This document shows positions 10,354-52,215 of a stretch of 52,215 nt of DNA, in pieces. Both the position numbers and the translations under genes were made by a program. Under the pieces are notes generated by a model that did not search any database, was not told where the DNA came from, and saw only the letters and a list, made by a program, of their open reading frames with translations. This DNA comes from Candidatus Woesearchaeota archaeon (GTDB lineage Archaea; Nanobdellota; Nanobdellia; Pacearchaeales; GW2011-AR1). Within the stretch, counting starts at the first letter, position 1, and every line of letters starts with the position of its first letter. The DNA lies in contig CAYQOK010000002.1 of assembly GCA_964419155.1 (NCBI GenBank), positions 7,705 through 59,919 of the forward strand, written 5' to 3'.

Positions 10354-11586
10354 CTAACGCCAAATGTTTTTACCCCTGACATAATGCCACATTGAAGTTA
10401 TTGCGACAAAAGGATATATCATTAAATAAATTGTTAGATAATACAAAAATAAAAGCATATTTTGTTTTTCAAACAAATTATCTTTCATAACTGATAATAC
10501 AAATAAAGTGAAAAAAAAGAACAAAAGAAAAAGAATTATACCAAAATAATTTAAAATACTTGGGGTAATATACATTTCATTTAGAGTTAACACTGGCACC
10601 CCTGCTTGAATACTATATCCGGTAATAAGATATCTGACCATTAAGTTTTTTATAAAAACATAAAGAAATATTGACATTCCAACTAATCCCAAAATAAGAC
10701 CTAATCCAAAAAAAGGAATAATAAAATAACCTAACATAGCTTTATTCTTCATAAATGAAGATTTATATTTACTCAAACATTGTAACCCTCCAACACCCCA
10801 TCTCCTTCTTTGTCGATACCAAGGTTTTAATTTATTCGGAACTGTTGTAGTTACTTTTGAACTAAAAGACATTTTTATTTTCCAGCCATTATGTATTAGA
10901 TGCCAAGTAGCTTCAATATCTTCTGTTAAATTAGAGGGGTCAAATCCATTAATATCTAAAAGTGCTTTTTTTCTATAAATTGTAAGAGTTCCAGTAGCAA
11001 CATAGATTGAATCAATATATTCTAAAAGTTTTCTTGTAAAAGCAATCACCTTATATTCTATAACTTGCAATTTTTCTAAAAATGTTTTATTATTTCTAGG
11101 AACACAAGTAGAAGTTACCGCCCCTACTTTTTCATCTTCAAAATAACCAATCATTTTTTTTAATGAGTCTCTTGAAGGATAACTATCTGCATCAACAACA
11201 GCAATCAATTCTCCTTTTACAAATTTTAAAGCCTTATTCATACTATCTGCTTTGCCTGAATTTTTTTTATTAAGAATCTTAAGTTTATTTTTATATTTAG
11301 GAATCAATTTTCTTAGTACTTCTAAAGTCCTATCAGTAGAACCATCATTAATAACTAACACTTCTAAAAGATTCGGATAATCTAAATCAAATACATGTTT
11401 AATTGTATCTTCAATTGTTTGTTCTTCATTATATGCCGGAATTAAAATAGAAACCGAATATTCTTTTTTCATTTCAGGATAAGAAAAAACATTGTTTTTA
11501 TTTTTAAAAAATAATAATAAACTGAGAATTAAAAAATAAAATGAAATAAACATATAAAAAAAATAAACACCTGTTAAAAACTCCAT
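10354..11586 (-). CDS. Processive family-2 glycosyltransferase (integral membrane)
   Basis: Has ILIPAYNEE, NDGSTD, VDADS, TEDIE and the Q-R-R-R-W motif (YRQRRRWGVGG), flanked by TM helices. Confidence 0.85.
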   Translation of the reverse strand: MEFLTGVYFFYMFISFYFLILSLLLFFKNKNNVFSYPEMKKEYSVSILIPAYNEEQTIEDTIKHVFDLDYPNLLEVLVINDGSTDRTLEVLRKLIPKYKNKLKILNKKNSGKADSMNKALKFVKGELIAVVDADSYPSRDSLKKMIGYFEDEKVGAVTSTCVPRNNKTFLEKLQVIEYKVIAFTRKLLEYIDSIYVATGTLTIYRKKALLDINGFDPSNLTEDIEATWHLIHNGWKIKMSFSSKVTTTVPNKLKPWYRQRRRWGVGGLQCLSKYKSSFMKNKAMLGYFIIPFFGLGLILGLVGMSIFLYVFIKNLMVRYLITGYSIQAGVPVLTLNEMYITPSILNYFGIILFLLFFFFTLFVLSVMKDNLFEKQNMLLFLYYLTIYLMIYPFVAITSMWHYVRGKNIWR

Positions 11587-29206: not shown

Positions 29207-29212
29207 TTTTAA

Positions 29213-37675: not shown

Positions 37676-37849
37676 ATGGCAAAAGAAAAACTAAGTTTTT
37701 ATGACGTAAAAACAAAAGCAAAATTTGAAACAGATGAATTCAAAGTTGTTGAGAAAAGTGGAAGATGGTTTGCAGTTGCAAAATCAAAAGCAGGAACCCA
37801 TGACTGTTGGAGAGTCTTATCAAAAGATCAAGCTCAAAAGTTAAAATAG
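37676..37849 (+). CDS. Small basic 57-aa protein (possible nucleic-acid binder), absent from the ORF track
   Basis: Hand translation gives MAKEKLSFYDVKTKAKFETDEFKVVEKSGRWFAVAKSKAGTHDCWRVLSKDQAQKLK. A strong GGAGAAAGGAGGA sequence lies just upstream of the ATG. Confidence 0.6.
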   Translation: MAKEKLSFYDVKTKAKFETDEFKVVEKSGRWFAVAKSKAGTHDCWRVLSKDQAQKLK

Positions 37850-42455: not shown

Positions 42456-44066
42456 TTAAATACTACTTAAGTCAGGCATAGAATCTTTTTCTTTTTTATC
42501 TCCTACTTCTGAGATTATTGCATCACTAGTTAAAATAAGTGATGCTACGCTTGCTGCGCCTTGTAATGCAACCCTTACAACCTTAACTGGATCAATAACT
42601 CCCCTTTCAATTAAATCAACAATCTCTCCTGCCCTTGCATCATAACCTTGATTCTCATCATTCATTTCTTTTATCTTTTCAACGTAAACAAACCCATTTT
42701 TACCTGAATTTTCAACTAATTGAATTACAGGTTCTTCTAAAGATCTTCTTATAATATCTACGCCAATGTTTTCATCTTCTTGAAGTTTAAAATTACTTAG
42801 TGACTTAGATGCATTTAATAATGCAATTCCGCCCCCAACAACATAACCTTCTTCAACAGCAGCTCTTGTTGCGTTTAAAGCATCATCAATTCTCAATTTT
42901 TTTTCTTTAAGCTCTGTCTCAGTAGCTGCTCCAACTTCAATAACTGCAACACCACCCATTAGCTTACCAAGTCTTTTTCTCAAATTATCTTTCTCATAAT
43001 CTGAAGATTCATTTTTAATTTGTAATTCAATAGACCGAACTCTTTTTTCAATATTCTCATTATTTCCTTGCCCCCCAATAATAAGTGTTTTATCTTTAGC
43101 ACACCTAACTTTTTCAGTAGTTCCTAAATAATTAACAGCATCACTAATTTTTATTCCTTTTTCAGAACTAATTACTTCCCCGCCTGTTAAGATAGCAATA
43201 TCTTCTAAAATCTGTTTTTTTTCCTCACCAAAACCCGGACTTTTAATAGCACAACACTTTATAGTTCCTCTAAGAATATTTAAAATAAGTGTTGCTAAAA
43301 CTTCTTGACTTAATCCTTCACTAATAATCAAAAGTGGTCTGGATTCTTGCATAGATTTTTCAATTACAGGAACAAAATCTTGCACATTATTTATATTTCC
43401 ATCATAAATTAAAACAAGAGGAGATTCCAATACAGATTCCATTTTTTCTTGATCAGTAATCATATAAGGGCTTTCAAAACCCTCATTTAATTCCATACCC
43501 TCAACAACTTTTAATTTTGTTTCAATAGAATTAGATTCTTCAACAGTTATTATTCCTTCATTTCCTACTTTTTTCATAGCATCAAAAATTAATTTACCAA
43601 TTACCTCATCATTATTTGCAGAAATTGTTGCTACTTGTTGTATTTTCTCATCAGAATCAACCATTATCTTTTTATTATTTAAAAATTCAACTACATTTTC
43701 AACTGCTTTTTCAATTCCTTTTTTAATTTGAATTGAATTAGCACCAGAAGAAATATTTTTAAGTCCTTGTTTAACAATAGATTGTAATAATAATGAAGAA
43801 GTTGTTGTTCCATCTCCCACCTTTGACTGGGTTTTTTGAGCAACTTCTTTAACTAATTCAGCTCCAACTTTTTCAAAACCTTCTTCTAATTCAATTTCTT
43901 CTGCAATTGTAACTCCATCATTAACAATTTCTACACTATATCCTTTTGATAAAACAACATTTTTTCCCTGAGGTCCCAATGTAATTTTAATTGCATTTAC
44001 TGCAGTATCAATTCCATTCATTAATTGTTTTCTTGCTTCTTCTCCAAAAATTATTTTTTTTACCAT
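42456..44066 (-). CDS. groEL: Group I chaperonin GroEL (Cpn60)
   Basis: Has KKIIFGEEARKQL, ITLGPQGKNVVL, AGDGTTT-like VGDGTTT and GGGIALL. It lacks a C-terminal GGM repeat. Confidence 0.93.
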   Translation of the reverse strand: MVKKIIFGEEARKQLMNGIDTAVNAIKITLGPQGKNVVLSKGYSVEIVNDGVTIAEEIELEEGFEKVGAELVKEVAQKTQSKVGDGTTTSSLLLQSIVKQGLKNISSGANSIQIKKGIEKAVENVVEFLNNKKIMVDSDEKIQQVATISANNDEVIGKLIFDAMKKVGNEGIITVEESNSIETKLKVVEGMELNEGFESPYMITDQEKMESVLESPLVLIYDGNINNVQDFVPVIEKSMQESRPLLIISEGLSQEVLATLILNILRGTIKCCAIKSPGFGEEKKQILEDIAILTGGEVISSEKGIKISDAVNYLGTTEKVRCAKDKTLIIGGQGNNENIEKRVRSIELQIKNESSDYEKDNLRKRLGKLMGGVAVIEVGAATETELKEKKLRIDDALNATRAAVEEGYVVGGGIALLNASKSLSNFKLQEDENIGVDIIRRSLEEPVIQLVENSGKNGFVYVEKIKEMNDENQGYDARAGEIVDLIERGVIDPVKVVRVALQGAASVASLILTSDAIISEVGDKKEKDSMPDLSSI

Positions 44067-44083
44067 TTTAAATTTTAAAAAAA

Positions 44084-44350
44084 TTATTCAATTATTTTTG
44101 CAATAATATTTTTTATATCAATTATAATCAATTCTTGATTATCAACCTTAATAGATTCTTCAACATAACCAGAGTATATAACCTTATCTCCTGGTTGAAC
44201 TTTTATATTCGGACCATCTCCAATTGTAATAACCTCTGCTTGTTTTTTCTTTTCAATAGCATCCTCAGTAAGATAAATTCCAGATGCAGTTCTTAATTCT
44301 TGTTTTATGGGCTTAAGTAAAACCCTATCACCCAAAGGTTTAATGTTCAT
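44084..44350 (-). CDS. groES: Co-chaperonin GroES (Cpn10)
   Basis: MNIKPLGDRVLLKP...ASGIYL... is the classic Cpn10 pattern. It lies directly upstream of groEL. Confidence 0.9.
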   Translation of the reverse strand: MNIKPLGDRVLLKPIKQELRTASGIYLTEDAIEKKKQAEVITIGDGPNIKVQPGDKVIYSGYVEESIKVDNQELIIIDIKNIIAKIIE

Positions 44351-44528: not shown

Positions 44529-45740
44529 ATGGGAAATAAAGTTCCTAAAAAAAAGGGGATAAAATCTGTTAAAAAAAATAAACAGATTAAAAAAAACATA
44601 AAAGCATATTACTTAATTGGAATCTTAATAACCGGATTAATCTTAATTTCAATAATAATTCTCTTAAAAACTAAAACAGAAATAGATTTAGGGAATAAGA
44701 CAAATATTACAAGAGAAAATATACAAAATAATGAAACTAAATCAACAACTAAAACCGCAGATAATAATCAAACAGAAGAAGATAACATCCCAAAAGACAG
44801 TTACATTAAAAAAAGTGATAATTATAAAGGTTATAAAGAAGAACCAGTAAATAACGAATCAAAACTATTAGATACAGATGGTTTTAAATTAAATGGAGAG
44901 ATAATAACATTAAATCATTGGAAAAGGGGTATTTGTTCTGATAACTCAAGCAGCTATGAGGATTCTTGTGAAGGGTCTATATTAGATGAATATTATTTGG
45001 AAGATAATGTCTGCAAATTAAATACTTTTGATTGCAATAATTTTTTAGAATTTTATAAAGAAGGAACCCAAATCGGTTGTTACAAAGGGGAATGTGTTCT
45101 TAAGGAAACTGGAAAAAACTACTCTTATAAAGGTGAAGTTATTGACAATAATCAAAAAATATATTGGGATGAATGTATTAATAATGATTTACTAAAGGAA
45201 TATTTTTTATCTGATTCATTTTCAACAGTATTTAAAGAGATTTCCTGTTCAGAAAAGTATGGTCTAGATTATTATTGTTCAGAAGGTGCTTGTATTAAAT
45301 CTGCAGATAAGAATCTTGCTTTAGATAGCGATAATGGAGAAGATATTCTAATTAAAGGAACTTGCGAATCTGTAATAAACGGAAACAATACTGATTATTG
45401 CACTGATTCAAAGAGATTAGTAGAATACTTTGTAGATTTAGAAGATAACTCTAAATGTAGTTCAAAAACAATTGATTGTCCTGGAAATTGTAGATTTGGA
45501 AAATGTAATGCAGAAGATTTTGATTTTGGAAAAAACTATACCACCCAATCATTTTGTGGGGGTATAAAAATTAATTATGATTCTTGTAACTGTTTAAATG
45601 ATGGAAATCCCTGTTATTCTCTAAAAGAATGGTTTACTTCAGAAAATACTTGCGATTATGAAATAGTTGATTGTAGAACTGTTTTAGGAAATGAACAAGC
45701 AAAATGTTATAATGGATATTGCACAATACAAAGAATTTAA
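44529..45740 (+). CDS. Membrane-anchored Cys-rich extracellular protein
   Basis: Has a Lys-rich N-terminus, one TM helix (YYLIGILITGLILISIIILL), then many spaced Cys with recurring C-x-x-G-x-C motifs. Confidence 0.6.
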   Translation: MGNKVPKKKGIKSVKKNKQIKKNIKAYYLIGILITGLILISIIILLKTKTEIDLGNKTNITRENIQNNETKSTTKTADNNQTEEDNIPKDSYIKKSDNYKGYKEEPVNNESKLLDTDGFKLNGEIITLNHWKRGICSDNSSSYEDSCEGSILDEYYLEDNVCKLNTFDCNNFLEFYKEGTQIGCYKGECVLKETGKNYSYKGEVIDNNQKIYWDECINNDLLKEYFLSDSFSTVFKEISCSEKYGLDYYCSEGACIKSADKNLALDSDNGEDILIKGTCESVINGNNTDYCTDSKRLVEYFVDLEDNSKCSSKTIDCPGNCRFGKCNAEDFDFGKNYTTQSFCGGIKINYDSCNCLNDGNPCYSLKEWFTSENTCDYEIVDCRTVLGNEQAKCYNGYCTIQRI

Positions 45741-45862: not shown

Positions 45863-46291
45863 CTAAATCCCCTCATCTTGAGCATCTTCTGGATGGTGAT
45901 ATAACATATGATCTAATAATGAACATTTTGTAACTAATTGATTTTCTTTATTCCATTCAAAATTTTTAACTGAATCATAACCTGCAGATTTTAAAATAAT
46001 CCTCATATCTAATGAATTTCCATTTGCATCAGATAATCTCTTAAGTGTTACCGTAGTTAAATTATTATGGGGGTTAGTTAAATAATCTCTGCCAAAATGT
46101 CTTGCTTTTTTTACTGCACTAACTATTGCACTCAGATTATCCTCTGCAACCAGTTTTTCATTTAATTCTAAACAATCTGGATTTCTAATTCCATAACCAT
46201 AACAAACACCACAATCAATTTTAAAAGTTGCTTTATATTCCATTCTCAAAATAATAGAACAATTAGATTTAAAAGAATTATTATAATCCAA
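45863..46291 (-). CDS. Hypothetical protein (first gene of the accessory region)
   Basis: A 142-aa ORF with CGVCYGYG near the N-terminus and no recognised family. The start may be the internal MEYKATF. Confidence 0.45.
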   Translation of the reverse strand: MDYNNSFKSNCSIILRMEYKATFKIDCGVCYGYGIRNPDCLELNEKLVAEDNLSAIVSAVKKARHFGRDYLTNPHNNLTTVTLKRLSDANGNSLDMRIILKSAGYDSVKNFEWNKENQLVTKCSLLDHMLYHHPEDAQDEGI

Positions 46292-46389
46292 AATATTGTT
46301 ATATTAAATTAAAATAACATTTTAAAATTAAAAACTAATCAAAAAACTATAGATAATTCACAATTTCTTTTGATATAACATCTTAAAAT

Positions 46390-46740
46390 TCTTTAAGCTC
46401 TTTAGGAAATTTATCAAAAGTTTTATAATTATCTGGGTAGAATTGTGAGTAATATAACAATTTATTCTTAAGATTTACTTAAATGGGTTTTAACCAAAAG
46501 GTTTCCCAAACCTCACCCTTAACCCAATCTTTTTTATCTAAATCAATTCATTTTATAGAATATTTCTTAACAAACCGCCTATCAGGAATAACTATGGTTT
46601 CCCATTCTGAAATTGGTTTTTTATTTTTTAGAAATGGTTTTTTATTAATTAAAACTTGTTTTATAACACTATAGCCCCTATAAATATAATCAAAAGAAAT
46701 TGCTTCATTATTAATTCCTACAGAGATAAAAAAATGTTTT
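46390..46740 (-). pseudogene. Possible decayed gene remnant (three consecutive reading-frame pieces)
   Basis: Hand translation of the minus strand gives three pieces separated by stops or frame changes: SVGINNEAISFDYIYRGYSVIKQVLINKKPFLKNKKPISEWETIVIPDRRFVKKYSIK, then IDLDKKDWVKGEVWETFWLKPI, then VNLKNKLLYYSQFYPDNYKTFDKFPKELKEF. Confidence 0.3.
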
Positions 46741-46853
46741 TAAGAAAGAGATTATAATCAATTCCAATCTTTAGATTATTAAAACTATCTAATAAATATC
46801 ATTGATTAAATCATCTGTAGCACTTAATTAAATCTAAAAATAGCATATACAAA

Positions 46854-47321
46854 TCAAAAAAGATTATTATGTTTTTTAACTGCAAAAAACCAACACTTTT
46901 CATTATCATATTTTGGATTAGATTTCCAAATCTTCTTAAAATAAGTTAATTTGTACTTATGTTCATCACCAAAAAACGGGTCATAAAAATAAATATACTT
47001 GCCATCAATTTTTTTTAAAATAGAATAATGATCAGTTTTTTCAGGAAGATAAAAATAACAAATTATAATTATAAAACCCTTCTTTTGATATTCTTTTAAG
47101 CTATTAATTGTTGCATTTCTCATTACAATATAATTTAATTTGAATTTTTCTGCAACAATTGGAAAACTTTTATGCCAAGTACCCCTTACTTTATTTGTGT
47201 TAAGTAATTTTGCAACTTGTTTTTCAGATTTTTTAAACCCACAAAATTCAAGAACCATCCTCATAGTAGAAGCCCCACAAGTATACTTGGTTTCTTGTTT
47301 ATGAAATGGAAATCTAGTCAT
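46854..47321 (-). CDS. Stand-alone C39-like papain-fold cysteine peptidase
   Basis: Has Q-x5-C (HKQETKYTCGASTMRMVL) near the N-terminus and a downstream His (KTDHYSIL), as in Peptidase_C39/C39_2 domains. No fused ABC transporter. Confidence 0.65.
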   Translation of the reverse strand: MTRFPFHKQETKYTCGASTMRMVLEFCGFKKSEKQVAKLLNTNKVRGTWHKSFPIVAEKFKLNYIVMRNATINSLKEYQKKGFIIIICYFYLPEKTDHYSILKKIDGKYIYFYDPFFGDEHKYKLTYFKKIWKSNPKYDNEKCWFFAVKKHNNLF

Positions 47322-47506
47322 AAGTTATATGCAGTTCCTTAACTTTATATAATTATTGTTAAATCTCAAAATAAAGTTATAGGAATCACGTTTATATTGT
47401 TTTAAAATAAGATTTTTTAAGTGATGATTAAATAAAAAAGACTCTGTATTTTTTGTTTCTTTTTTTGAAAAAAAATTTAAACCTAAATACAATTACAACT
47501 AACATT

Positions 47507-47576
47507 GAGCTTAAGAAGAATTTTCAAAGTAATTGAAGATTCATGTAGAGTCTGCAAAGCGAAGCTCTTTAAGCTC
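47507..47576. repeat. CTTAAG-bounded imperfect hairpin (spacer R0)
   Basis: GAGCTTAAG (47507-47515) pairs with CTTTAAGCTC (47567-47576), with one extra T. An inner stem GAATTTTCAA/TTGAAGATTC is present. The architecture matches 52010-52133. Confidence 0.6.
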
Positions 47577-47640
47577 TGTTATGTGTTTTTTCTCCACAAA
47601 AAAAATTACATAGTGAAACAGAACAACAGTATGATACAAT

Positions 47641-48072
47641 TCAACCAGACAGATATCTTGAAATCAAGTCAACTTTTTCTTTACGATTAATTAATTGATA
47701 AAATCTTTTAGCATATTCAAGAGGCAAGATTGGAATTTTCAAATCATTCCAAAAGATTTTTTCAGTTTTATCAAACATATCTAATTCTCTATCGCCATAA
47801 GAATTAATTTCAATTTCAAAATTATTAATATCGCAAACAATAGAGTAACCATTTATTTTTTGACTGAAAAAATCTTTGATAATATATTTTTTCAGGGCGT
47901 TTCTAAAAATCTCAATGCCTTCATAATTTGTAGTAATATCTAAATCTTGAACTAAAACTTCAACACCTTGAATCTTAAGATTTGCACTACCTTCTAATCT
48001 CCAAATAAATTCTTTACCTTTAAGATTATCTAAAATGATTTGTAAAATTTCTTTGATATCTTTTTCATCCAT
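47641..48072 (-). CDS. Minimal nucleotidyltransferase-fold protein (pol-beta superfamily)
   Basis: Has G-S then D-x-D (LEGSANLKIQGVEVLVQDLDITT), the hallmark of MNT/KNTase-like NTases. Confidence 0.6.
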   Translation of the reverse strand: MDEKDIKEILQIILDNLKGKEFIWRLEGSANLKIQGVEVLVQDLDITTNYEGIEIFRNALKKYIIKDFFSQKINGYSIVCDINNFEIEINSYGDRELDMFDKTEKIFWNDLKIPILPLEYAKRFYQLINRKEKVDLISRYLSG

Positions 48073-48144
48073 AATGCTAAAAAATTCTTTAATCTATATA
48101 AATTTTCTTAAGAGGCAAACCAAGTAATATTTCGTCTAACATCT

Positions 48145-48214
48145 GGATTTAGAAAAGTTTTTACAAAGCAAAAATTTGGGAAAATCTAGAGCAGAGAGAT
48201 TTTCCCCTAAATCC
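48145..48214. repeat. Nested hairpin in spacer R1
   Basis: GGATTTAG (48145-48152) pairs with CTAAATCC (48207-48214). Perfect 10-bp inner stem GGGAAAATCT (48178-48187) / AGATTTTCCC (48197-48206). Confidence 0.6.
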
Positions 48215-48367
48215 TTATTAAACATCCAAAACGAAGTGGGGGGTGATCAAGAATTTTTCACTTCGTGAAAAATTAAAGAAGTAGTTTTATGAGTGTATCT
48301 ATATTAATTTAAGGGTAGTAATCCAAACGAAAGAGTTATAAATAAATAGTGATATCCTAAATTTATT

Positions 48368-48772
48368 ATGACAGAAAATCAAAATCCACAATATGTTAAA
48401 AAAGAAGACGGAAAAGTGACCCTTATAGAAAGAGTGACAGATGGGCTTAAAGCAATTCCCCCAATTTTAGGATGCACTGCTGGAGCTTATTTATTAGATT
48501 TTTCTGGATACATAAGCAATGTTGCTGAAATTTTGCCGGCAAATAATTTGAATTTAGGATATCATCTTGCAGCAGGTTCGGGTTTATATGGAGGATACAC
48601 TTCTAAAGAAAATAGAAAAATTGCATCACTTGTAATTTTAGCAAGTTCTTTTATCCCTGAAATTATAATGTTTACCCAAGATGGAAATTTAAGAAGTGTA
48701 GGAACAACTTCTGCTACAAAGTTGATTGGCTATGAAGTTGGTTATATAATCGGATATATTTTTGGAGAATAA
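48368..48772 (+). CDS. Gly-rich putative membrane protein with C-terminal glycine-zipper
   Basis: Has hydrophobic/Gly-rich segments (ILGCTAGAYLL, AAGSGLYGGY) and the terminal GYEVGYIIGYIFGE. No known family recognised. Confidence 0.45.
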   Translation: MTENQNPQYVKKEDGKVTLIERVTDGLKAIPPILGCTAGAYLLDFSGYISNVAEILPANNLNLGYHLAAGSGLYGGYTSKENRKIASLVILASSFIPEIIMFTQDGNLRSVGTTSATKLIGYEVGYIIGYIFGE

Positions 48773-48837
48773 ACCTTTCGCGTTCTATAATTTTAGCCCA
48801 AATCTCAAATTGAAACGAACATCACGATTAAAAAAAG

Positions 48838-48867
48838 TTAAAATTTTGGGTTGCTTCAAAATTTTAA
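48838..48867. other. Perfect 11-bp stem-loop downstream of 48368..48772
   Basis: Stem TTAAAATTTTG, loop ggttgctt, stem CAAAATTTTAA, followed by TTT. It lies 66 nt after the stop codon and is a possible terminator. Confidence 0.35.
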
Positions 48868-49063
48868 TTTAAGCGATTTTCTGCGAGATGTCTAAAGGAT
48901 TTTTTTTCTCAAAAAAAAACCGCAAAGTTGTTCGAAGGCACTTGTATTAATTTTAAAAATGGCACTTCAGGACTGCGGGACGCTGTCAAAATAAATAAGA
49001 AATGTGTGCGTCTTCTTTGCTTCTTTCTTTCTAAGAAAGAGGGGGGCACTTTTCTTTTTACTT

Positions 49064-49258
49064 TCAAAACTCTCTCCATTCAATTCCCAAATCCATAAAG
49101 TCTATTTCTGCAAATCTATTAAGATTTATCCTTCCCTTTCCTGTAAGATACTTAAAAATTTCCATTGTTTGAATATTTGCTACCGCTCCAGCAATTGGTC
49201 CGAGGTTTCCCGTCTGTCTAATGTCTCTTATCTTTTCTAAATCTTTTAGAGTGTCCAT
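49064..49258 (-). CDS. C-terminal fragment of the E1-like (ThiF/MoeB) enzyme, separated by a frameshift
   Basis: GNLGPIAGAVANIQTMEIFKYLTG matches the conserved post-crossover helix of ThiF/MoeB. It overlaps the upstream ORF by 13 nt in a different frame. Confidence 0.65.
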   Translation of the reverse strand: MDTLKDLEKIRDIRQTGNLGPIAGAVANIQTMEIFKYLTGKGRINLNRFAEIDFMDLGIEWREF

Positions 49259-50073
49259 TTTTTTTGGTATTCTAAAAAATCATCAAAAGTTTTAGTGATT
49301 CCAGGGATAATGACTGGACCAACCATTCCTAAATGTAGATTATATCCTCCTGCAACACAATAAGCAACTTGGTGATGATTAGCATATTCATCAATGATTC
49401 TTGTTGTTTCTGCAACTGATGGAGAATCAGCACAATTTACTAGAAAATTACAACCAAAAACAATATCTTCTAAATCATGATTTGGTTCGACTCTTTTTTT
49501 GAAGGGAGCTATATTTGCATCCTTCAATTTTTCTTTTACAACATCCACTTTATACTTCCCCACATCCCCAGAATCAAAAAATAATTGTCTGTTAAAATTA
49601 CTTTTCTCTACGACATCAGGGTCAGTAATTCTTATCTCCCCCACACCAATTTGATACAGCCCATTTACAATCCAAGTTCCAATTCCACCAACTCCAAAAA
49701 CAGCAACTTTGGAATTCTTTATTCTCTTTTGTATCTCTAATGTTTCTTTCCTTGAATCTGTAAGTTCGTCCAAAAATAATAATTGTCTATAATGTCTTCC
49801 TTTTTCTAAATCAGATTCATATCTTCTAACAATCCCTTCTTTTTCTAAGGCATTTAAACAAGCATCTATATCTTGAGGACTATATTTAGAAGATAATCTT
49901 TCAGTTAAACCTTGTTCTGTTTGCTCAGAATCAAGGAAAGTAATCACATCCTTAACTAGAGAATCTACTTGAAATTTTTTTATTCTTCGTGTTGCAGTTG
50001 AAATAAAGATATAGTTATCTTCAGTATCTTTCAAGACATACAAGGAATCTTTAATTTTCAACTTACTACTCAT
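49246..50073 (-). CDS. E1-like ThiF/MoeB-family adenylyltransferase with N-terminal PqqD/RRE-like winged-helix domain (truncated by frameshift at an A8 run)
   Basis: Has the nucleotide loop VAVFGVGGIGTW and ITDPDVVEKSNFNRQ. The N-terminal 90 aa have beta-beta-beta plus helices ending LNALEKEGIV, as in PqqD/RRE. Confidence 0.7.
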   Translation of the reverse strand: MSSKLKIKDSLYVLKDTEDNYIFISTATRRIKKFQVDSLVKDVITFLDSEQTEQGLTERLSSKYSPQDIDACLNALEKEGIVRRYESDLEKGRHYRQLLFLDELTDSRKETLEIQKRIKNSKVAVFGVGGIGTWIVNGLYQIGVGEIRITDPDVVEKSNFNRQLFFDSGDVGKYKVDVVKEKLKDANIAPFKKRVEPNHDLEDIVFGCNFLVNCADSPSVAETTRIIDEYANHHQVAYCVAGGYNLHLGMVGPVIIPGITKTFDDFLEYQKKWTL

Positions 50074-50641
50074 TTGAAATTATTTCTCCATATTTGATAT
50101 TTTTACTATTTGGTTCTAATAAAATCTCTCCAGAGTCATCTATCGGGGCGATAATTTTGTAATTTTTTAATCTTTTCCTCAATAAAGAATCTTTTCTTAA
50201 ATGCCAACAACCAAGAATAATAATTATTGGAAGCTTTGTTTTTGATTTATATTCCAAAATCTTTGAGAGATGGTATTTCTCCCTTTTTTCAACTAAATTA
50301 TTTAATTTTTCTTCCTCTTCTCTTGTAAGCCCTTTTTGATTTTTTATTTTTTTTTGCAAATTTTCATCAAATCCGAAATTATGAAAATCAATCCCAATTA
50401 ATTTAATCTTTTTGTCAAAACATAATTTTATCAGTTTTTCAACTTCATTAAAGGAAGTCACATCAGAAATAAATTTTTTCTCGAAAATTTCTTTAAATTG
50501 GTCTGCTTGTTCTAATTTTAAATCTTCTAATTCTTCACTTAAGATAAATTCTGGATTCATAATGTTAATAATTTCTTTTTGTTTTGAGAAATCATCTAAA
50601 AAAAAGTGAGTACTACCTATAAAAATGAAAGATAAAGCCAT
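50066..50641 (-). CDS. Putative TraB/PrgY/Tiki-superfamily metalloprotease-like protein (tentative)
   Basis: Has an N-terminal G-x-x-H (FIGSTHF), acidic ILSEEL and a C-terminal G-x-x-H (ILGCWHL), in the order seen in TraB/Tiki. GGAG lies 8 nt before the ATG. An 8-nt overlap with the E1-like gene suggests translational coupling. Confidence 0.4.
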   Translation of the reverse strand: MALSFIFIGSTHFFLDDFSKQKEIINIMNPEFILSEELEDLKLEQADQFKEIFEKKFISDVTSFNEVEKLIKLCFDKKIKLIGIDFHNFGFDENLQKKIKNQKGLTREEEEKLNNLVEKREKYHLSKILEYKSKTKLPIIIILGCWHLRKDSLLRKRLKNYKIIAPIDDSGEILLEPNSKNIKYGEIISNE

Positions 50642-50660
50642 TTTTTACTCCAAGAAAGAT

Positions 50661-50813
50661 TTACATCCAATATTTAATACTTGTTGGACCTGCGTAAACC
50701 TCATCTTTAACTTTTCGAAGCCCCTCATAAAGAGGTTTTTCTATTGTAAGGTAAGGTCTTGCTTCTTCTTTTCTTGGTGTAACTCCTTCCAAAGTTTTTT
50801 CAAGGGTTTCCAT
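50661..50813 (-). CDS. Unannotated 50-aa peptide ORF, first gene of the operon (candidate precursor peptide)
   Basis: Hand translation gives METLEKTLEGVTPRKEEARPYLTIEKPLYEGLRKVKDEVYAGPTSIKYWM. It ends 19 nt upstream of the next ATG, and a TATA-like box lies upstream. Confidence 0.45.
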   Translation of the reverse strand: METLEKTLEGVTPRKEEARPYLTIEKPLYEGLRKVKDEVYAGPTSIKYWM

Positions 50814-50860
50814 ATTTTAAGAGTAAATAGACTCCTTTATATATTTTATTATTCTGAATG
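50814..50860 (-). promoter_or_regulatory. Putative archaeal promoter of the peptide/TraB-like/E1-like operon
   Basis: The minus strand reads AATAAAATATATAAAGGAGTCTATTTACTCTTAAAATATG. An A/T TATA-like box lies about 25-35 nt before the ATG. Confidence 0.3.
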
Positions 50861-51008
50861 TGAAAAATGCCCAATTAAATCTCAAAATCTTTGATTTTGA
50901 CCATCTGTTTTTCTGAAAGAAAAACCAAGCTCACATCTCCAAATTAGGGGTGGTTGGTCGGGGGATGGCTAAAGAGAGATTTTAGCTATTTTTAATTCCT
51001 TAAGTTTA

Positions 51009-51059
51009 GTGCCTTCAAACAATTAGACATAACATTTGGTTAAACAACCCGAAGGGCAC
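51009..51059. repeat. Hairpin GTGCCTTC ... GAAGGGCAC with one extra G
   Basis: Read directly. The CGAAGGCA core recurs at 48933-48941 and 52182-52190. Confidence 0.5.
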
Positions 51060-51158
51060 GAGTGGAGCATAGCGACCTCCAAAAATTCAATTTTGATGGA
51101 GAAGTCTGCAATGCTTCGTAGTCGGTTAAGCCCGATGTTCTATTCTTCCGATAGGATT

Positions 51159-51197
51159 GGATTTTAATGCAATGTTCGGACAAAGTCCGAAAAATCC
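51159..51197. repeat. Nested hairpin present only in the left arm (insertion relative to the right arm)
   Basis: GGATTTT aatgcaatg TTCGGAC aaa GTCCGAA AAATCC. This segment lies between modules that are adjacent in the right arm. Confidence 0.55.
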
Positions 51198-51272
51198 AAA
51201 GTTCAGAAAACGGCCGTCTTTTAAATGAACGTAGTGATACATCAAGACACAAAATTGAGAGCCACGAGCTAA

Positions 51273-51917
51273 TTATTTTTTAATATTTTCTACCCAATTA
51301 GGAATATTGTTACTCTTTAGATTTTTAAATTCTGTTTGGCACCTTAATTTACCTTTATTTTCAAGATTATTACATATTTTAATATTATCTTGTGAGTAAG
51401 CAACATCAACATAACACTCAACTAAATGATATTCATCTAATTGTTTGCATAATTCAACATTTTCCTTCAATTGAGCAATATCTGATATACAATGATATTT
51501 CCAATATTCCGCATCCTTTCCTTCAAAAATACATTGAGTAACACTTTGACTTGAAACGGCTATGCAATACTGTTTTATGTATGCAGAAAAATCATAATCG
51601 TCAATCTTATCGTCTGATTTGATATTTTGACAAATAGTTGGATTCTGTGTGTTCCTCGCAATCCAACCGTAACATCTGTTAACATAATTACTTGCTATGG
51701 AAGTGTTATATTCTGTAGCGGGATGATTTTCACACAGTTTAATATCTTTATAACCGTTTGAAGCTAGATCTTGATAACAAGCTATATCTGTTTGCTCACA
51801 ATCTTCAATTTGTCTTGGAAAATTTGAATTTTCTGTTTTTTGATTTGTACATCCAATAATAATTAACAATCCTACTACAAGCAATATTACCAGAAAAATA
51901 ATTATGTTTCTTCCCAC
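51273..51917 (-). CDS. Cys-rich secreted protein, probable lipoprotein
   Basis: Has a signal peptide ending in the lipobox-like IIIGC, then about 16 Cys in recurring C-x(n)-C helical-looking repeats. Confidence 0.65.
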   Translation of the reverse strand: MGRNIIIFLVILLVVGLLIIIGCTNQKTENSNFPRQIEDCEQTDIACYQDLASNGYKDIKLCENHPATEYNTSIASNYVNRCYGWIARNTQNPTICQNIKSDDKIDDYDFSAYIKQYCIAVSSQSVTQCIFEGKDAEYWKYHCISDIAQLKENVELCKQLDEYHLVECYVDVAYSQDNIKICNNLENKGKLRCQTEFKNLKSNNIPNWVENIKK

Positions 51918-51958
51918 ACTGGAATCATTAATTAAGATTTATATAAACCTTTCTAGTG

Positions 51959-52209
51959 GCTCGTGGCTCTATCTGTTTTTCGGCCGTTTTCTGAATTGAA
52001 TAGAACATCGGGCTTAAGGGAGGTTCAATTTCCTCGAAAAAATTCTCCTCGTGAAACAGAGCTGAGAATTTTTTCAGAGCTGAAATTGAATTTGGGTGTA
52101 GTGAGGTGCAACCGAACGAAACCCTTTAAGCCCTGTTAGTTTCTTTTTACGAAGTAAAAATTGATTTTTAGTGCAACGATGCCGAAGGCAAAAAATCAAA
52201 GTTTTTGAG
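51959..52209 (-). repeat. Right arm of the inverted repeat bracketing gene 51273..51917
   Basis: Contains GCTCGTGGCTCT (51959-51970), CGGCCGTTTTCTGAA (51981-51995), GAATAGAACATCGGGCTTAA (51998-52017) and AAAAATCAAAGTTTTTGAG (52191-52209). These are reverse complements of the left-arm modules. Confidence 0.8.
52010..52133. repeat. Long three-stem imperfect hairpin (CTTAAG-bounded) in spacer R5
   Basis: GGGCTTAAGGG (52010-20) pairs with CCCTTTAAGCCC (52122-33). TTCAATTTC (52024-32) pairs with GAAATTGAA (52082-90). GAAAAAATTCTC (52036-47) pairs perfectly with GAGAATTTTTTC (52064-75). Confidence 0.7.
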
Positions 52210-52215
52210 AATGCC

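Follow-up and report, generated by a model that had tools for sequence, protein, structure and literature searches.

A probable integron-like gene cassette array in an archaeon

What separates the genes at one end of a 52,215-nt stretch of DNA from a Candidatus Woesearchaeota archaeon (GenBank assembly GCA_964419155.1, contig CAYQOK010000002.1, positions 7,705 to 59,919; ‘the window’ below), where five spacers are unusually long and relatively rich in G+C? The original prediction, made from the letters alone, was that these spacers (S1-S5) share short modules in different order and orientation, and that they represent either structured RNAs, decayed MITE-like elements or recombination-site elements separating gene cassettes of an accessory island. 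The observation proved to be real, and the interpretation was partly supported, with the last of its three alternatives receiving strong support. Archaeal integrons are known. However, the recombinase type and site layout met here appear undescribed in the papers that could be searched.

Five long spacers and the element they share

The five spacers are 291-378 nt, whereas the 47 gaps between ORFs of at least 60 aa elsewhere in the window have a median of 43 nt. Only two of those 47 exceed 250 nt and both are explained, one holding a tRNA and the other a 57-aa ORF. A count of 97 G+C in the 240 nt of 50941-51180, given in the original prediction, is exact. Whole-spacer G+C is 0.238, 0.275, 0.333, 0.397 and 0.376 for S1 to S5 respectively, with intergenic DNA elsewhere at 0.211 and coding DNA at 0.273. 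All five are therefore above the intergenic baseline, but only S3-S5 are above coding level. The DNA at 46292-46853 is not a spacer, as it holds a decayed cassette pseudogene.

Whether the shared modules exceed chance was tested in two ways. By pairwise Smith-Waterman alignment against dinucleotide shuffles only three comparisons do so: S1-S5 direct (score 48 against 23.5 +/- 3.4), S4-S5 inverted (41 against 21.5 +/- 3.0) and, at a borderline level, S4-S5 direct. In contrast, a covariance model (R1) built only from 31 copies in other metagenomes gives exactly five significant matches in the window, one per spacer and all on the minus strand, with E from 2.9e-13 to 7.8e-4 and the next hit at E = 1.8. 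Each match (H1-H5; Table 1) is an 80-150 nt imperfect palindrome of the form N6-AAC-A-GGGCTTAA...TTAAGCCC-GAT-GTT-N6, and all five sites fold as single-stranded DNA hairpins in prediction. Most of the modules originally picked out can be placed with respect to this element. TTAAGC(C/T)C...TGTT and its inverted copies are the two arms of the palindrome, and CCCAAATT is the conserved junction motif inside it. GTGCCTTC(G)AAACAA at 51009, inverted at 48926-48941, is a cassette-specific terminal inverted repeat, and CGAAGGCA at 52182 lies in a conserved branch module just upstream of the palindrome. However, CCCAAATCTCAAATT at 48797 and GTGAAACAGA at 47613 lie outside the core element.

Table 1. 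Features of the proposed array end within the window, with the observations bearing on each (L numbers denote related metagenome contigs; bits and E are from model R1; z is for the single-stranded DNA fold)
Positions	Strand	Feature	Observations
52146..52215	-	3' end of the next cassette towards the head of the array, cut by the window end; reads GGCATTCTCAAAAA[branch module]GAAACT directly before the AAC of H5	Reverse complement of the cassette start GTT|AGTTTC AATTTTTGAGAATGCC seen in L015, L044, L052, L054, L060, L088 and L100; 88-100% identical to the matching stretch in many loci
51996..52145	-	Recombination site H5 (attC-like palindrome); AAC 52137-52135, GTT 52006-52004	61.2 bits, E = 2.9e-13; z = -5.5; 97-99% identical to copies in other metagenomes (L015, L093, L077)
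51148..51995	-	Cassette a; gene for a 214-aa Cys-rich protein with a lipoprotein-like signal (51273-51917), own TATA-like box near 51937-51944; starts CTATTC (52003-51998), ends GAATAG (51145-51140)	Three perfect collinear inverted blocks flank the gene: 51126-51145/51998-52017 (20 nt), 51202-51216/51981-51995 (15 nt), 51258-51269/51959-51970 (12 nt); same cassette in L007 at 95% DNA identity, followed by a different cassette downstream
51023..51147	-	Recombination site H4; AAC 51139-51137, GTT 51033-51031; right arm diverged (TTTAACCAAATGTT)	30.5 bits, E = 2.5e-5; z = -3.6
48889..51022	-	Cassette b; 50-aa ORF (50661-50813), 191-aa ORF (50066-50641) and ThiF/E1-like gene split at an A8 run (49246-50073 plus 49064-49258); starts ATGTCT AATTGTTTGAAGGCAC; near its end GTGCCTTCGAACAA (reverse complement of 48926-48941) and AGACAT	Pfam ThiF at 6.9e-32; terminal inverted repeat 51009-51022/48926-48941; end hexamer AGACAT present but 7 nt away from the degenerate AAC position of H3
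48810..48888	-	Recombination site H3, degenerate; AAA replaces AAC at 48880-48878, GTT 48820-48818	24.7 bits, E = 7.8e-4; z = -2.0
48228..48809	+	Cassette c; 134-aa gene (48368-48772) oriented opposite to the array	No hexamer complementarity seen
48130..48227	-	Recombination site H2; AAT replaces AAC at 48219-48217, GTT 48140-48138	55.5 bits, E = 8.2e-12; z = -3.9
47589..48129	-	Cassette d; 143-aa nucleotidyltransferase-like gene (47641-48072)	Weak Pfam match to Aminoglyc_resit; 84% identical to a cassette in L040 next to that contig's own site; no hexamer complementarity
47493..47588	-	Recombination site H1; AAC 47580-47578, GTT 47503-47501	57.0 bits, E = 3.5e-12; stem GAGCTTAAG/CTTAAGCTC compensates for GGGCTTAAG/CTTAAGCCC in H5; z = -2.4
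46854..47492	-	Cassette e; 155-aa peptidase C39-like gene (46854-47321)	Pfam Peptidase_C39 at 8.8e-10; 81% identical to a cassette lying between two sites in L065
46347..46853	-	Decayed far end of the array; remnant of a right half-site (..GCTACAGATGATT, about 46800-46820), then a pseudogene cassette at 46347-46780	75% identical over 441 nt to an intact cassette gene in L122; start codon lost, one TGG changed to TGA, and a frameshift; no R1 hit

The family is far from confined to this contig. A motif scan returned at least 120 metagenome contigs, of which 106 carry a model hit, with 231 hits in 615 kb. All 74 contigs with two or more hits have every hit in one orientation. On 146 distinct copies, 94.8% of cells pair against 79.4% in shuffles, and there are 300 double-change cells against 97.5. 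The covariation score is 0.396 against 0.125 (0 of 500 shuffles reach it), with slid controls staying at or below 0.09. Such strong stem covariation, the raised G+C in an AT-rich genome, an RNA fold of S5 with z = -4.2 and a conserved unpaired CCCAAATTTTTT motif, whose T-run could stop archaeal RNA polymerase, might suggest structured non-coding RNAs or RNA-level 3' elements (terminators or stabilisers) that happen to sit between genes. However, no Rfam family matches, even at E up to 5, compensatory changes are almost only Watson-Crick to Watson-Crick, and G-U pairs are rare inside the helix. Further, as detailed below, the strongest constraint links the two ends of a cassette across the gene, which RNA folding of a single element does not explain, synteny breakpoints fall exactly at GTT, and the elements occur only in arrays next to a recombinase gene. 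A pure RNA reading is very unlikely, though a secondary role as terminator is not excluded.

Cassette ends, breakpoints and the gene at the array head

In 125 cassettes from related contigs, the six bases after GTT at the start of a cassette were compared with the reverse complement of the six bases before AAC at its end. Complementarity averages 5.08 of 6 and is perfect in 61%, whereas the two flanks of one element give 2.83 (5% perfect) and random pairs 2.71 (2.9% perfect). A further complementary run of at least 9 nt between the two ends is present in 79% of cassettes, against 3.3% for mismatched pairs. Median cassette size is 892 nt, and in 41 of 126 cassettes the longest ORF has the orientation opposite to the array, as in cassette c. 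A natural insertion polymorphism is pertinent. Two contigs, L134 and L135, have an identical recombinase and the same core flank, but L135 has one extra 3.9-kb cassette that starts ATATTC, ends GAATAT-AAC-H-ATGTT, and is inserted exactly between ...ATATATGTT and ATACGC.... The window's own cassettes recur singly in other arrays with different neighbours (Table 1), and in this respect the term accessory island was right in spirit.

Spread by transposition into intergenic DNA, as miniature inverted-repeat transposable elements or REP/ERIC-like palindromic repeats, would be in keeping with terminal inverted repeats of about 14-24 nt, element lengths of 80-176 nt, the many near-identical copies across samples, and the frequency with which contigs break inside the elements. 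Nevertheless, there are no target-site duplications, shared 4- to 6-mers in the flanks being at chance level (e.g. 0.135 against 0.150 for 4-mers), and no empty and filled sites differing only by one element plus a duplicated target were seen. Orientation is mixed in 0 of 74 contigs, no copy occurs in the other 46 kb of the window, and no transposase recurs in the loci. The two flanks of one element are unrelated, whereas those of one gene are complementary. This possibility is accordingly considered remote.

The most recurrent protein family in the related loci is a XerA-like tyrosine recombinase of about 270 aa, always upstream of the array and divergent from it. In all 17 informative loci the array begins next to this gene, at 60-110 nt, through a half or mini site that ends in TGTT. 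Six of six informative loci chosen by recombinase homology alone also carry arrays, of 3-7 sites, on that side only. No other tyrosine recombinase, and no IntI-like protein, occurs in 783 kb of loci. As the window holds no recombinase, the link for this particular array rests on related contigs, and adjacency of a Xer-type gene could reflect a neighbouring dif site rather than catalysis.

An alternative is an ordinary integron cassette cluster (a CALIN), with the H sites being canonical attC sites served by a true IntI integrase encoded elsewhere and the XerA-like gene only a neighbour. Archaeal integrons and CALINs are published, including in Nanoarchaeota and Woesearchaeales (PMC9668308), the cassette boundary lies at GTT, and H has the same box order and spacing as published attC sequences. 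For aadA7 the arrangement is GTCTAAC-AATTCA-TTCAAGCC...GGCTTAA-TTCAAGC-GTTAGAT, and for H it is GCATAAC-AGGGC-TTAACCGA...TCGGTTAA-GCCCGAT-GTTATGC. However, every informative array head abuts the XerA-like gene and, as noted, IntI-like proteins are absent from the loci. The recombinases have diverged to 32-45% identity yet keep the same site family, which argues for co-evolution rather than chance adjacency, and the motif strings are absent from the supplement of PMC9668308. The alternative is thus unlikely, though less so than the RNA and transposition readings.

A model for the array

The best explanation, held with fairly high confidence, is that 46347-52215 is the far end of a chromosomal, integron-like gene cassette array in a small-genome DPANN (Woesearchaeota-like) archaeon. 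Each long spacer carries one recombination site, H, which in the direction of most cassette genes (the minus strand) reads N6-AAC-A-GGGC-TTAA-xxx ... branched variable tip ... xxx-TTAA-GCCC-GAT-GTT-N6. As a single strand, or as a cruciform, it would fold into a hairpin whose base is a 9-bp box (N6-AAC paired with GTT-N6), followed by GGGC/GCCC, then TTAA/TTAA and then a covarying extension. In this view a gene would move as a unit made of N6, a promoter, the gene or genes, a second cassette-specific inverted repeat, a branch module, N6', and then AAC-H-GTT. Strand exchange would happen at or next to the invariant GTT, so that the six bases after GTT belong to the downstream cassette and pair with the six bases before that cassette's own AAC. 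The head of the array would lie beyond the right end of the window, and should carry a small resident hairpin site (attI-like) and a divergently transcribed XerA-like tyrosine recombinase catalysing the exchange.

Of this, the sequence comparisons demonstrate the element family and its covarying stem, the single orientation per array, the complementarity between the two ends of each cassette, the breakpoints at GTT in natural variants and the linkage of arrays to the recombinase gene. That the DNA folds, and which strand does so, the exact cleavage position, catalysis by this recombinase, and termination of upstream cassette transcription by the T-run inside H are inferences from sequence alone. 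Not everything fits. Within the window only cassette a shows perfect hexamer complementarity, and H2 and H3 lack the exact AAC. Across the family 39% of cassettes lack perfect hexamers, and one third have an opposed longest ORF. The departures from canonical attC given below are also relevant, as is the absence from the recombinase of the IntI-specific domain, which is held to define integron integrases and is reported necessary for integron recombination (Messier and Roy 2001, as cited in PMC9668308).

Comparison with known systems

The closest comparison is with integrons, i.e. an IntI integrase, an attI site and attC-bounded cassettes, including archaeal integrons and CALINs (Ghaly et al. 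2022, PMC9668308). Shared are tandem cassettes with a median of about 0.9 kb separated by co-oriented imperfect palindromes, an outer box pair ending in AAC and starting with GTT, a second box pair, TTAAxxxx/xxxxTTAA, at the same spacing, and a variable tip. Also shared are a cassette boundary at GTT, so that the first bases of a cassette pair with the start of its own site, a divergent tyrosine recombinase gene and primary insertion site at the array head, and entry of new cassettes next to that site (L134 against L135). However, the recombinase is XerA-like and what it lacks is a domain of roughly 44 aa, the outer box is 9 bp rather than 7 bp, the stretch between the boxes is paired (GGGC/GCCC) with a 2-nt bulge instead of being an unpaired central spacer, and there is no regular extrahelical base. 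In addition, cassettes carry a second, cassette-specific inverted repeat of 9-18 nt plus a conserved branch module, they seem to have their own archaeal promoters, a third have the longest ORF in the opposite orientation, and the primary site is itself a mini hairpin.

Integrative elements that exploit Xer recombinases also merit comparison (PMC5357621 is a general Xer review), above all CTX phage, which integrates through a folded single-stranded hairpin at dif. There, a Xer-family recombinase acts on a forked hairpin of about 150 nt formed by two inverted half-sites, and elements stack in tandem at one chromosomal site. Here the units are single-gene cassettes, not phage genomes, each integrated cassette keeps a complete hairpin site, arrays reach at least 7 units and no 11-6-11 dif-type duplex site is visible at the junctions. 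The pdif modules of Acinetobacter plasmids are likewise small gene modules in series, bounded by inversely oriented Xer-type sites with a variable 6-bp centre. However, pdif sites are 28-bp duplex XerC/XerD sites that alternate in orientation, whereas here the sites are 80-176 nt hairpins, all in one orientation, with one recombinase gene at the array head. The Vibrio cholerae repeats of chromosomal super-integrons are served by a true IntI (VchIntIA, PDB 2A3V), which the recombinases here match in two pieces only, with the extra domain missing. Nevertheless, the parallels extend to long sites of about 120 nt that are highly similar within a lineage, to sedentary chromosomal arrays next to core genes, and to decayed cassettes at the far end.

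The long spacers and a model of their shared element

The window is an AT-rich archaeal chromosome segment, with 26.9% G+C, and encodes MCM, an ATP-dependent DNA ligase, several aminoacyl-tRNA synthetases and FtsZ together with three tRNA genes. It also has a bacterial-type GroEL/GroES pair, whose nearest GroEL relatives in species-representative genomes are 52-53% identical in Woesearchaeota and Nanoarchaeota bins and 46% in a Patescibacteria bin. The organism is therefore a DPANN archaeon without a close sequenced relative, and GroEL used as bait in those genomes led only to distant relatives (46-53% identity) that carry no elements of the type considered here. However, a 1-kb Logan contig and a 2-kb JGI contig show that the same or a sister population exists in two other samples.

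The observation behind the original prediction, that the spacers near the right end of the window are unusually long, raised in G+C and built from shared modules, is confirmed. The five spacers (S1 to S5, numbered as the sites H1 to H5 that they hold) are 291-378 nt long against a median gap of 43 nt elsewhere in the window, their G+C is 0.238-0.397 against 0.211 in other intergenic DNA, and the original count of 97 G+C in a 240-nt stretch is exact. By local alignment against dinucleotide shuffles, only S1-S5 (direct) and S4-S5 (inverted) clearly exceed chance, with S4-S5 (direct) borderline, and pairwise comparison of this kind failed to show that S2 and S3 belong with the others. A global MAFFT alignment of S4 against the reverse complement of S5 was misleading because of large indels, and chained local blocks were used instead. 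These resolve the S4-S5 signal into a collinear set of perfect inverted blocks of 20, 15 and 12 nt that flank a gene for a 214-aa protein. Small ORFs of 43-70 aa inside S4 and S5 were considered as possible genes, but are explained by the inverted DNA blocks. S5 folds into a long hairpin whose closing stem is AACAUCGGGCUUAAGGG/CCCUUUAAGCCCUGUU, and S1 has the same architecture with a compensating A-U for G-C.

The 214-aa protein has only two homologues among 5.8 billion proteins, at 98% and 57% identity. The 98% identical copy is on a JGI contig, L007, where the same gene, with the same flanking inverted blocks, is followed by a different gene (184 aa) than in the window. That gene is itself bracketed by its own inverted repeat (ATGCTC AATTCGGGCTGGC ... 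GCCAGCCCGAA ... GAGCAT), and the palindromic element sits between the genes. Read in gene orientation, every window spacer contains (G)ATGTT-N6-AAT, and a scan of metagenome contigs for TTAAGCCCGATGTT-N6-AATT found matches in at least 120 contigs. In most of these matches the sequence upstream of the motif is a recognisable copy of the element, 80-176 nt long, and for 106 of the 120 contigs this is confirmed by a hit at E <= 0.01 to the covariance model described next. The same cassette start follows different element variants in different contigs, and the junction after GTT is therefore a recombination breakpoint. In viral contigs, a degenerate 20-mer gave two chance hits in phage coding sequence, while the exact 20-mer and the 24-nt junction pattern gave none, so that the elements are not viral.

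A covariance model, R1, was built from 31 short metagenome copies only. In the window it finds five significant matches, all on the minus strand and one in each of the five spacers, those in S2 and S3 included, with the next hit at E = 1.8. A motif hit at 29209 is not hit by the model, and is a plain terminator-like hairpin after ftsZ. In 615 kb of fetched contigs the model finds 231 copies, and all 74 contigs with two or more copies have them in a single orientation. Across 146 distinct copies, 94.8% of cells pair against 79.4% in shuffles, there are 300 double-change cells against 97.5, and the covariation score is 0.396 against 0.125, and at most 0.09 when the partners are slid. G-U pairs are rare inside the helix, which fits pairing at the DNA level, and all five window copies fold as single-stranded DNA hairpins in prediction, with z from -2.0 to -5.5.

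Rfam 15 offers no home for the elements. In the whole window only the three tRNAs reach gathering scores, and in 46000-52215 a search at E up to 5 gave only two chance-level matches (E 0.34 and 1.1), both far below their families' gathering scores and neither inside a recombination-site element. The expectations for a MITE or REP-like transposable repeat are not borne out either, as there are no target-site duplications (shared flank k-mers are at chance level), none of the 74 contigs has mixed orientation, and in the window there is no copy outside the array.

Cassette ends and the linked recombinase

AAC is exact in 206 of 236 model hits and GTT in 223 of 236; in the window H1, H4 and H5 have AAC, H2 has AAT, H3 has AAA, and all five have GTT. 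In 125 cassettes bounded by two elements, the hexamer after GTT at the start is the reverse complement of the hexamer before AAC at the end, with a mean match of 5.08 of 6 and 61% perfect, whereas the two flanks of a single element match at 2.83 (5% perfect) and random pairs at 2.71 (2.9% perfect). This is the footprint left by recombination at a fixed point in a hairpin whose base is formed by the two ends of a circular cassette, the same logic as that of integron attC sites. In the window itself the signature is uneven, cassette a being perfect, cassette b displaced by 7 nt, and cassettes c and d showing none. Beyond the hexamer, 79% of cassettes have a further complementary run of at least 9 nt between their two ends, against 3.3% of mismatched pairs. 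On the 3′ side that run is separated from the hexamer by a semi-conserved branch module of about 45-60 nt, examples being TTTTTGCCTTCGGCATCGTTGCACTAAAA...TCCTAACGGA and CCC-TTCG-GGG-type mini hairpins, which could bind an accessory protein or act as a terminator. Its presence explains why the modules had appeared to occur in different order and orientation.

A natural experiment is provided by two contigs, L134 and L135, that encode the identical recombinase (P0012) and share the same core genes on one side (RadA and others). On the other side L134 reads ...CTAGGCTTAATATATGTT|ATACGC AATTAAATTTTCAC..., and L135 reads ...CTAGGCTTAATATATGTT|ATATTC ... 3.9 kb ... GAATAT|AAC-element-AATGTT|ATACGC AATTAAATTTTCAC.... 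One cassette with complementary end hexamers and its own site has therefore been inserted exactly at GTT, next to the recombinase gene. The resident site is itself a mini hairpin, AAC TATAA TTAAACCTAG GAAA CTAGGCTTAA TATAT GTT. The inserted cassette encodes an Eco57I/N6_Mtase-type restriction-modification enzyme, and DNA methylases, TrmB regulators, radical SAM/SPASM, NUDIX and ABC ATPases recur as cassette genes in other loci.

Clustering of all ORFs of the loci gives a tyrosine recombinase of about 270 aa as the most recurrent family, present in 11 loci. It always lies upstream of the array and divergent from it, with a ...TGTT|N6|AAT junction 60-110 nt from its start. In one such locus, L106, three direct repeats of ATTAAGCC lie between the recombinase start and the first junction, recalling the accessory integrase-binding direct repeats of attI1, and in another, L067, a 1038-aa SRP54-like ORF beside the recombinase seems to carry a large intein-like insertion (C...HN boundaries). 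The best family is NF040815 (XerA), at 204-238 bits against a cut-off of 220, two of four tested proteins passing. The integron-integrase model TIGR02249 gives 172-209 bits, below its cut-off of 265, and matches in two pieces, query residues 170-190 spanning IntI4 residues 179-243. Against solved structures Pyrococcus XerA (4A8E) is best at 177.7 bits, and Vibrio IntIA (2A3V) follows at 159 bits, split so that 20 query residues span 64 IntIA residues. The IntI-specific domain is absent.

As an independent test, homologues were taken by protein search alone, 6219 being found at E <= 1e-20, named by their sources as Woesearchaeota, Pacearchaeota, Nanoarchaeota and Diapherotrites, and contigs were fetched. 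Six of six informative loci carry 3-7 elements on the upstream, divergent side and none on the other, while a seventh contig ends 432 nt upstream of the gene. Overall, a divergent recombinase gene with a primary insertion site next to it is found in 17 of 17 informative related loci. No other tyrosine recombinase occurs in 783 kb of loci, and the recombinases have diverged to 32-45% identity while keeping the same site family.

Organization of the window

The window is read as showing the decaying far end of an integron-like array, its features being collected in the table. The array runs off the right end, where the recombinase and the primary site should lie; none is in the window. Cassettes d and e, the pseudogene and cassette a each have 75-95% identical counterparts as single cassettes in other arrays with other neighbours. 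A 'minimal site' considered at 46378-46408 was rejected, because it lies inside the coding homologue of a cassette gene of another contig, L122.

Positions of features in the window and in related contigs
Feature	Location	Strand	Description
Tail of an upstream cassette	52215-52146	-	
Site H5	51996-52145	-	R1, 61.2 bits
Cassette a, 214-aa gene	51273-51917	-	Cys-rich, lipoprotein-like; no family match
Site H4	51023-51147	-	R1, 30.5 bits
Cassette b	48889-51022		Three co-oriented genes: 50-aa ORF, 191-aa ORF with no family match, split ThiF/E1-like gene
Split of the ThiF/E1-like gene	49246-49258	-	275-aa and 64-aa ORFs, at a run of eight A
Site H3	48810-48888	-	R1, 24.7 bits; degenerate
Cassette c			134-aa gene in the opposite orientation
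Site H2	48130-48227	-	R1, 55.5 bits
Cassette d			Nucleotidyltransferase-like
Site H1	47493-47588	-	R1, 57.0 bits
Cassette e			Peptidase C39-like
Half-site remnant			
Pseudogene cassette	46347-46780		
Cys-rich protein gene	44529-45740	+	N-terminal membrane or lipoprotein-like signal; no family match
GroEL/GroES	42456-44350		Bacterial-type pair
57-aa ORF	37676-37849	+	Preceded by GGAGG
Branch modules	51146-51201, 52146-52195; L007 1806-1850		
Direct repeats, recombinase start to first junction	L106 about 11440-11560 (array orientation)		Three copies
SRP54-like ORF	L067 3564-6680		1038 aa
Restriction-modification enzyme gene	L135 2362-4092		In the 3.9-kb cassette at the array head

The split of the ThiF/E1-like gene of cassette b, at ccAAAAAAAAtgg, could be a sequencing error, a decaying cassette gene or a slippery homopolymer switch. 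With a C39-like peptidase two cassettes away, the gene set of this cassette resembles a small peptide-modification or ubiquitin-like conjugation module, though PADLOC on the cassette proteins gave only generic E1-E2 (E1-domain) similarity. Away from the array, the 57-aa ORF (MAKEKLSFYDVKTKAKFETDEFKVVEKSGRWFAVAKS...) fills one of the only two other long gaps in the window, and looks like a small nucleic-acid-binding protein.

About 32 of 231 elements are cut by a contig end, and the window itself stops 70 nt beyond H5. These repeats break short-read assemblies, so arrays and their recombinase genes are likely to be split between contigs, lost from genome bins and under-represented there. Integron-finding software that requires the IntI domain would label them, at best, as orphan attC clusters.

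Interpretation and relation to integrons and Xer systems

The interpretation in the original prediction was partly supported, in that of the readings it offered (structured RNAs, decayed MITE-like elements, or recombination sites that separate gene cassettes) the third is right. What the sequences show directly is the element family with its covarying stem, the single orientation within arrays, the complementary cassette ends, the breakpoints at GTT and the linkage to the recombinase gene. The mechanism, meaning hairpin folding, exchange at GTT and catalysis by the XerA-like enzyme, is inferred from sequence logic and natural variants rather than from experiment.

A further possibility, about as likely as not, is that DPANN archaea carry a second lineage of integron-type platforms that does not depend on IntI, in which a Xer-family recombinase, possibly the cell's only XerA, recombines folded hairpin sites and stacks promoter-bearing gene cassettes next to its own gene. 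Since the recombinase scores almost as well against Vibrio IntIA as against Pyrococcus XerA, yet lacks the IntI insertion, the system could be close to the ancestral state from which IntI and attC arose, or could be an independent invention of hairpin-site cassette capture. Integrons are the textbook case of a recombinase that reads folded single-stranded DNA, the extra domain of IntI being held to be what makes this possible. A widespread archaeal cassette platform run by a plain Xer-type enzyme would show that this domain is not required for cassette capture, and would give a concrete candidate for how integrons evolved from Xer systems. It would also explain a large share of strain-level gene-content variation in ultra-small archaea.

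Full-text searches, in a searchable literature that is incomplete, for the motif strings and for XerA, integrons and cassettes in DPANN archaea found no description of this system. However, archaeal integrons and orphan attC clusters were reported by Ghaly et al. 2022, including in Nanoarchaeota and Woesearchaeales, with their integrases required to carry the IntI domain (PMC9668308). The published attC sequences, aadA7 and a Nanoarchaeota site ACATAAC-AAATCA-TTCAACCGG...CCGGTTAA-TTCATG-GTTATGG, have, as judged by eye, the same order and spacing of boxes as H. An initial concern that the inner boxes were in the wrong orientation for attC was resolved when TTAAxxxx/xxxxTTAA, rather than GGGCTTAA, was read as the inner box pair. 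Eight of 10 pairs in this inner helix show compensatory changes, and 95.7% of its cells pair.

H is inferred to work like an attC and resembles one, but differs in five ways. The outer box is 9 bp. The stretch between the boxes, instead of being an unpaired central spacer, pairs as GGGC/GCCC. In attC sites such a spacer and extrahelical bases set strand choice. There is no regular extrahelical base, the only regular asymmetry being a 2-nt bulge (GA) on the 3′ arm, while a bulged A after TTAA occurs in some variants only. There is a second cassette-specific inverted repeat with a branch module. Finally, whereas integron cassettes are mostly promoterless and co-oriented and are expressed from a common promoter, cassettes here appear, from sequence alone, to carry their own promoters, TATA-like boxes lying about 29 nt upstream in 38 of 80 cassettes, and one third (41, against 80 co-oriented) have the longest ORF in the opposite orientation. 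As the defining integrase feature is lacking, the array is not classed as an integron in the strict sense.

The site of archaeal XerA is a 28-bp duplex with two inverted 11-bp arms and a 6-bp spacer (PMC2958812). A dif-like (11-6-11) reading of the junctions was considered and dropped, because by eye the sequence after the hexamer (AATT...) is not the inverse of the arm before it (AGCCCGATGTT). The other close analogy is Xer-dependent integration of CTX phage through a folded hairpin.
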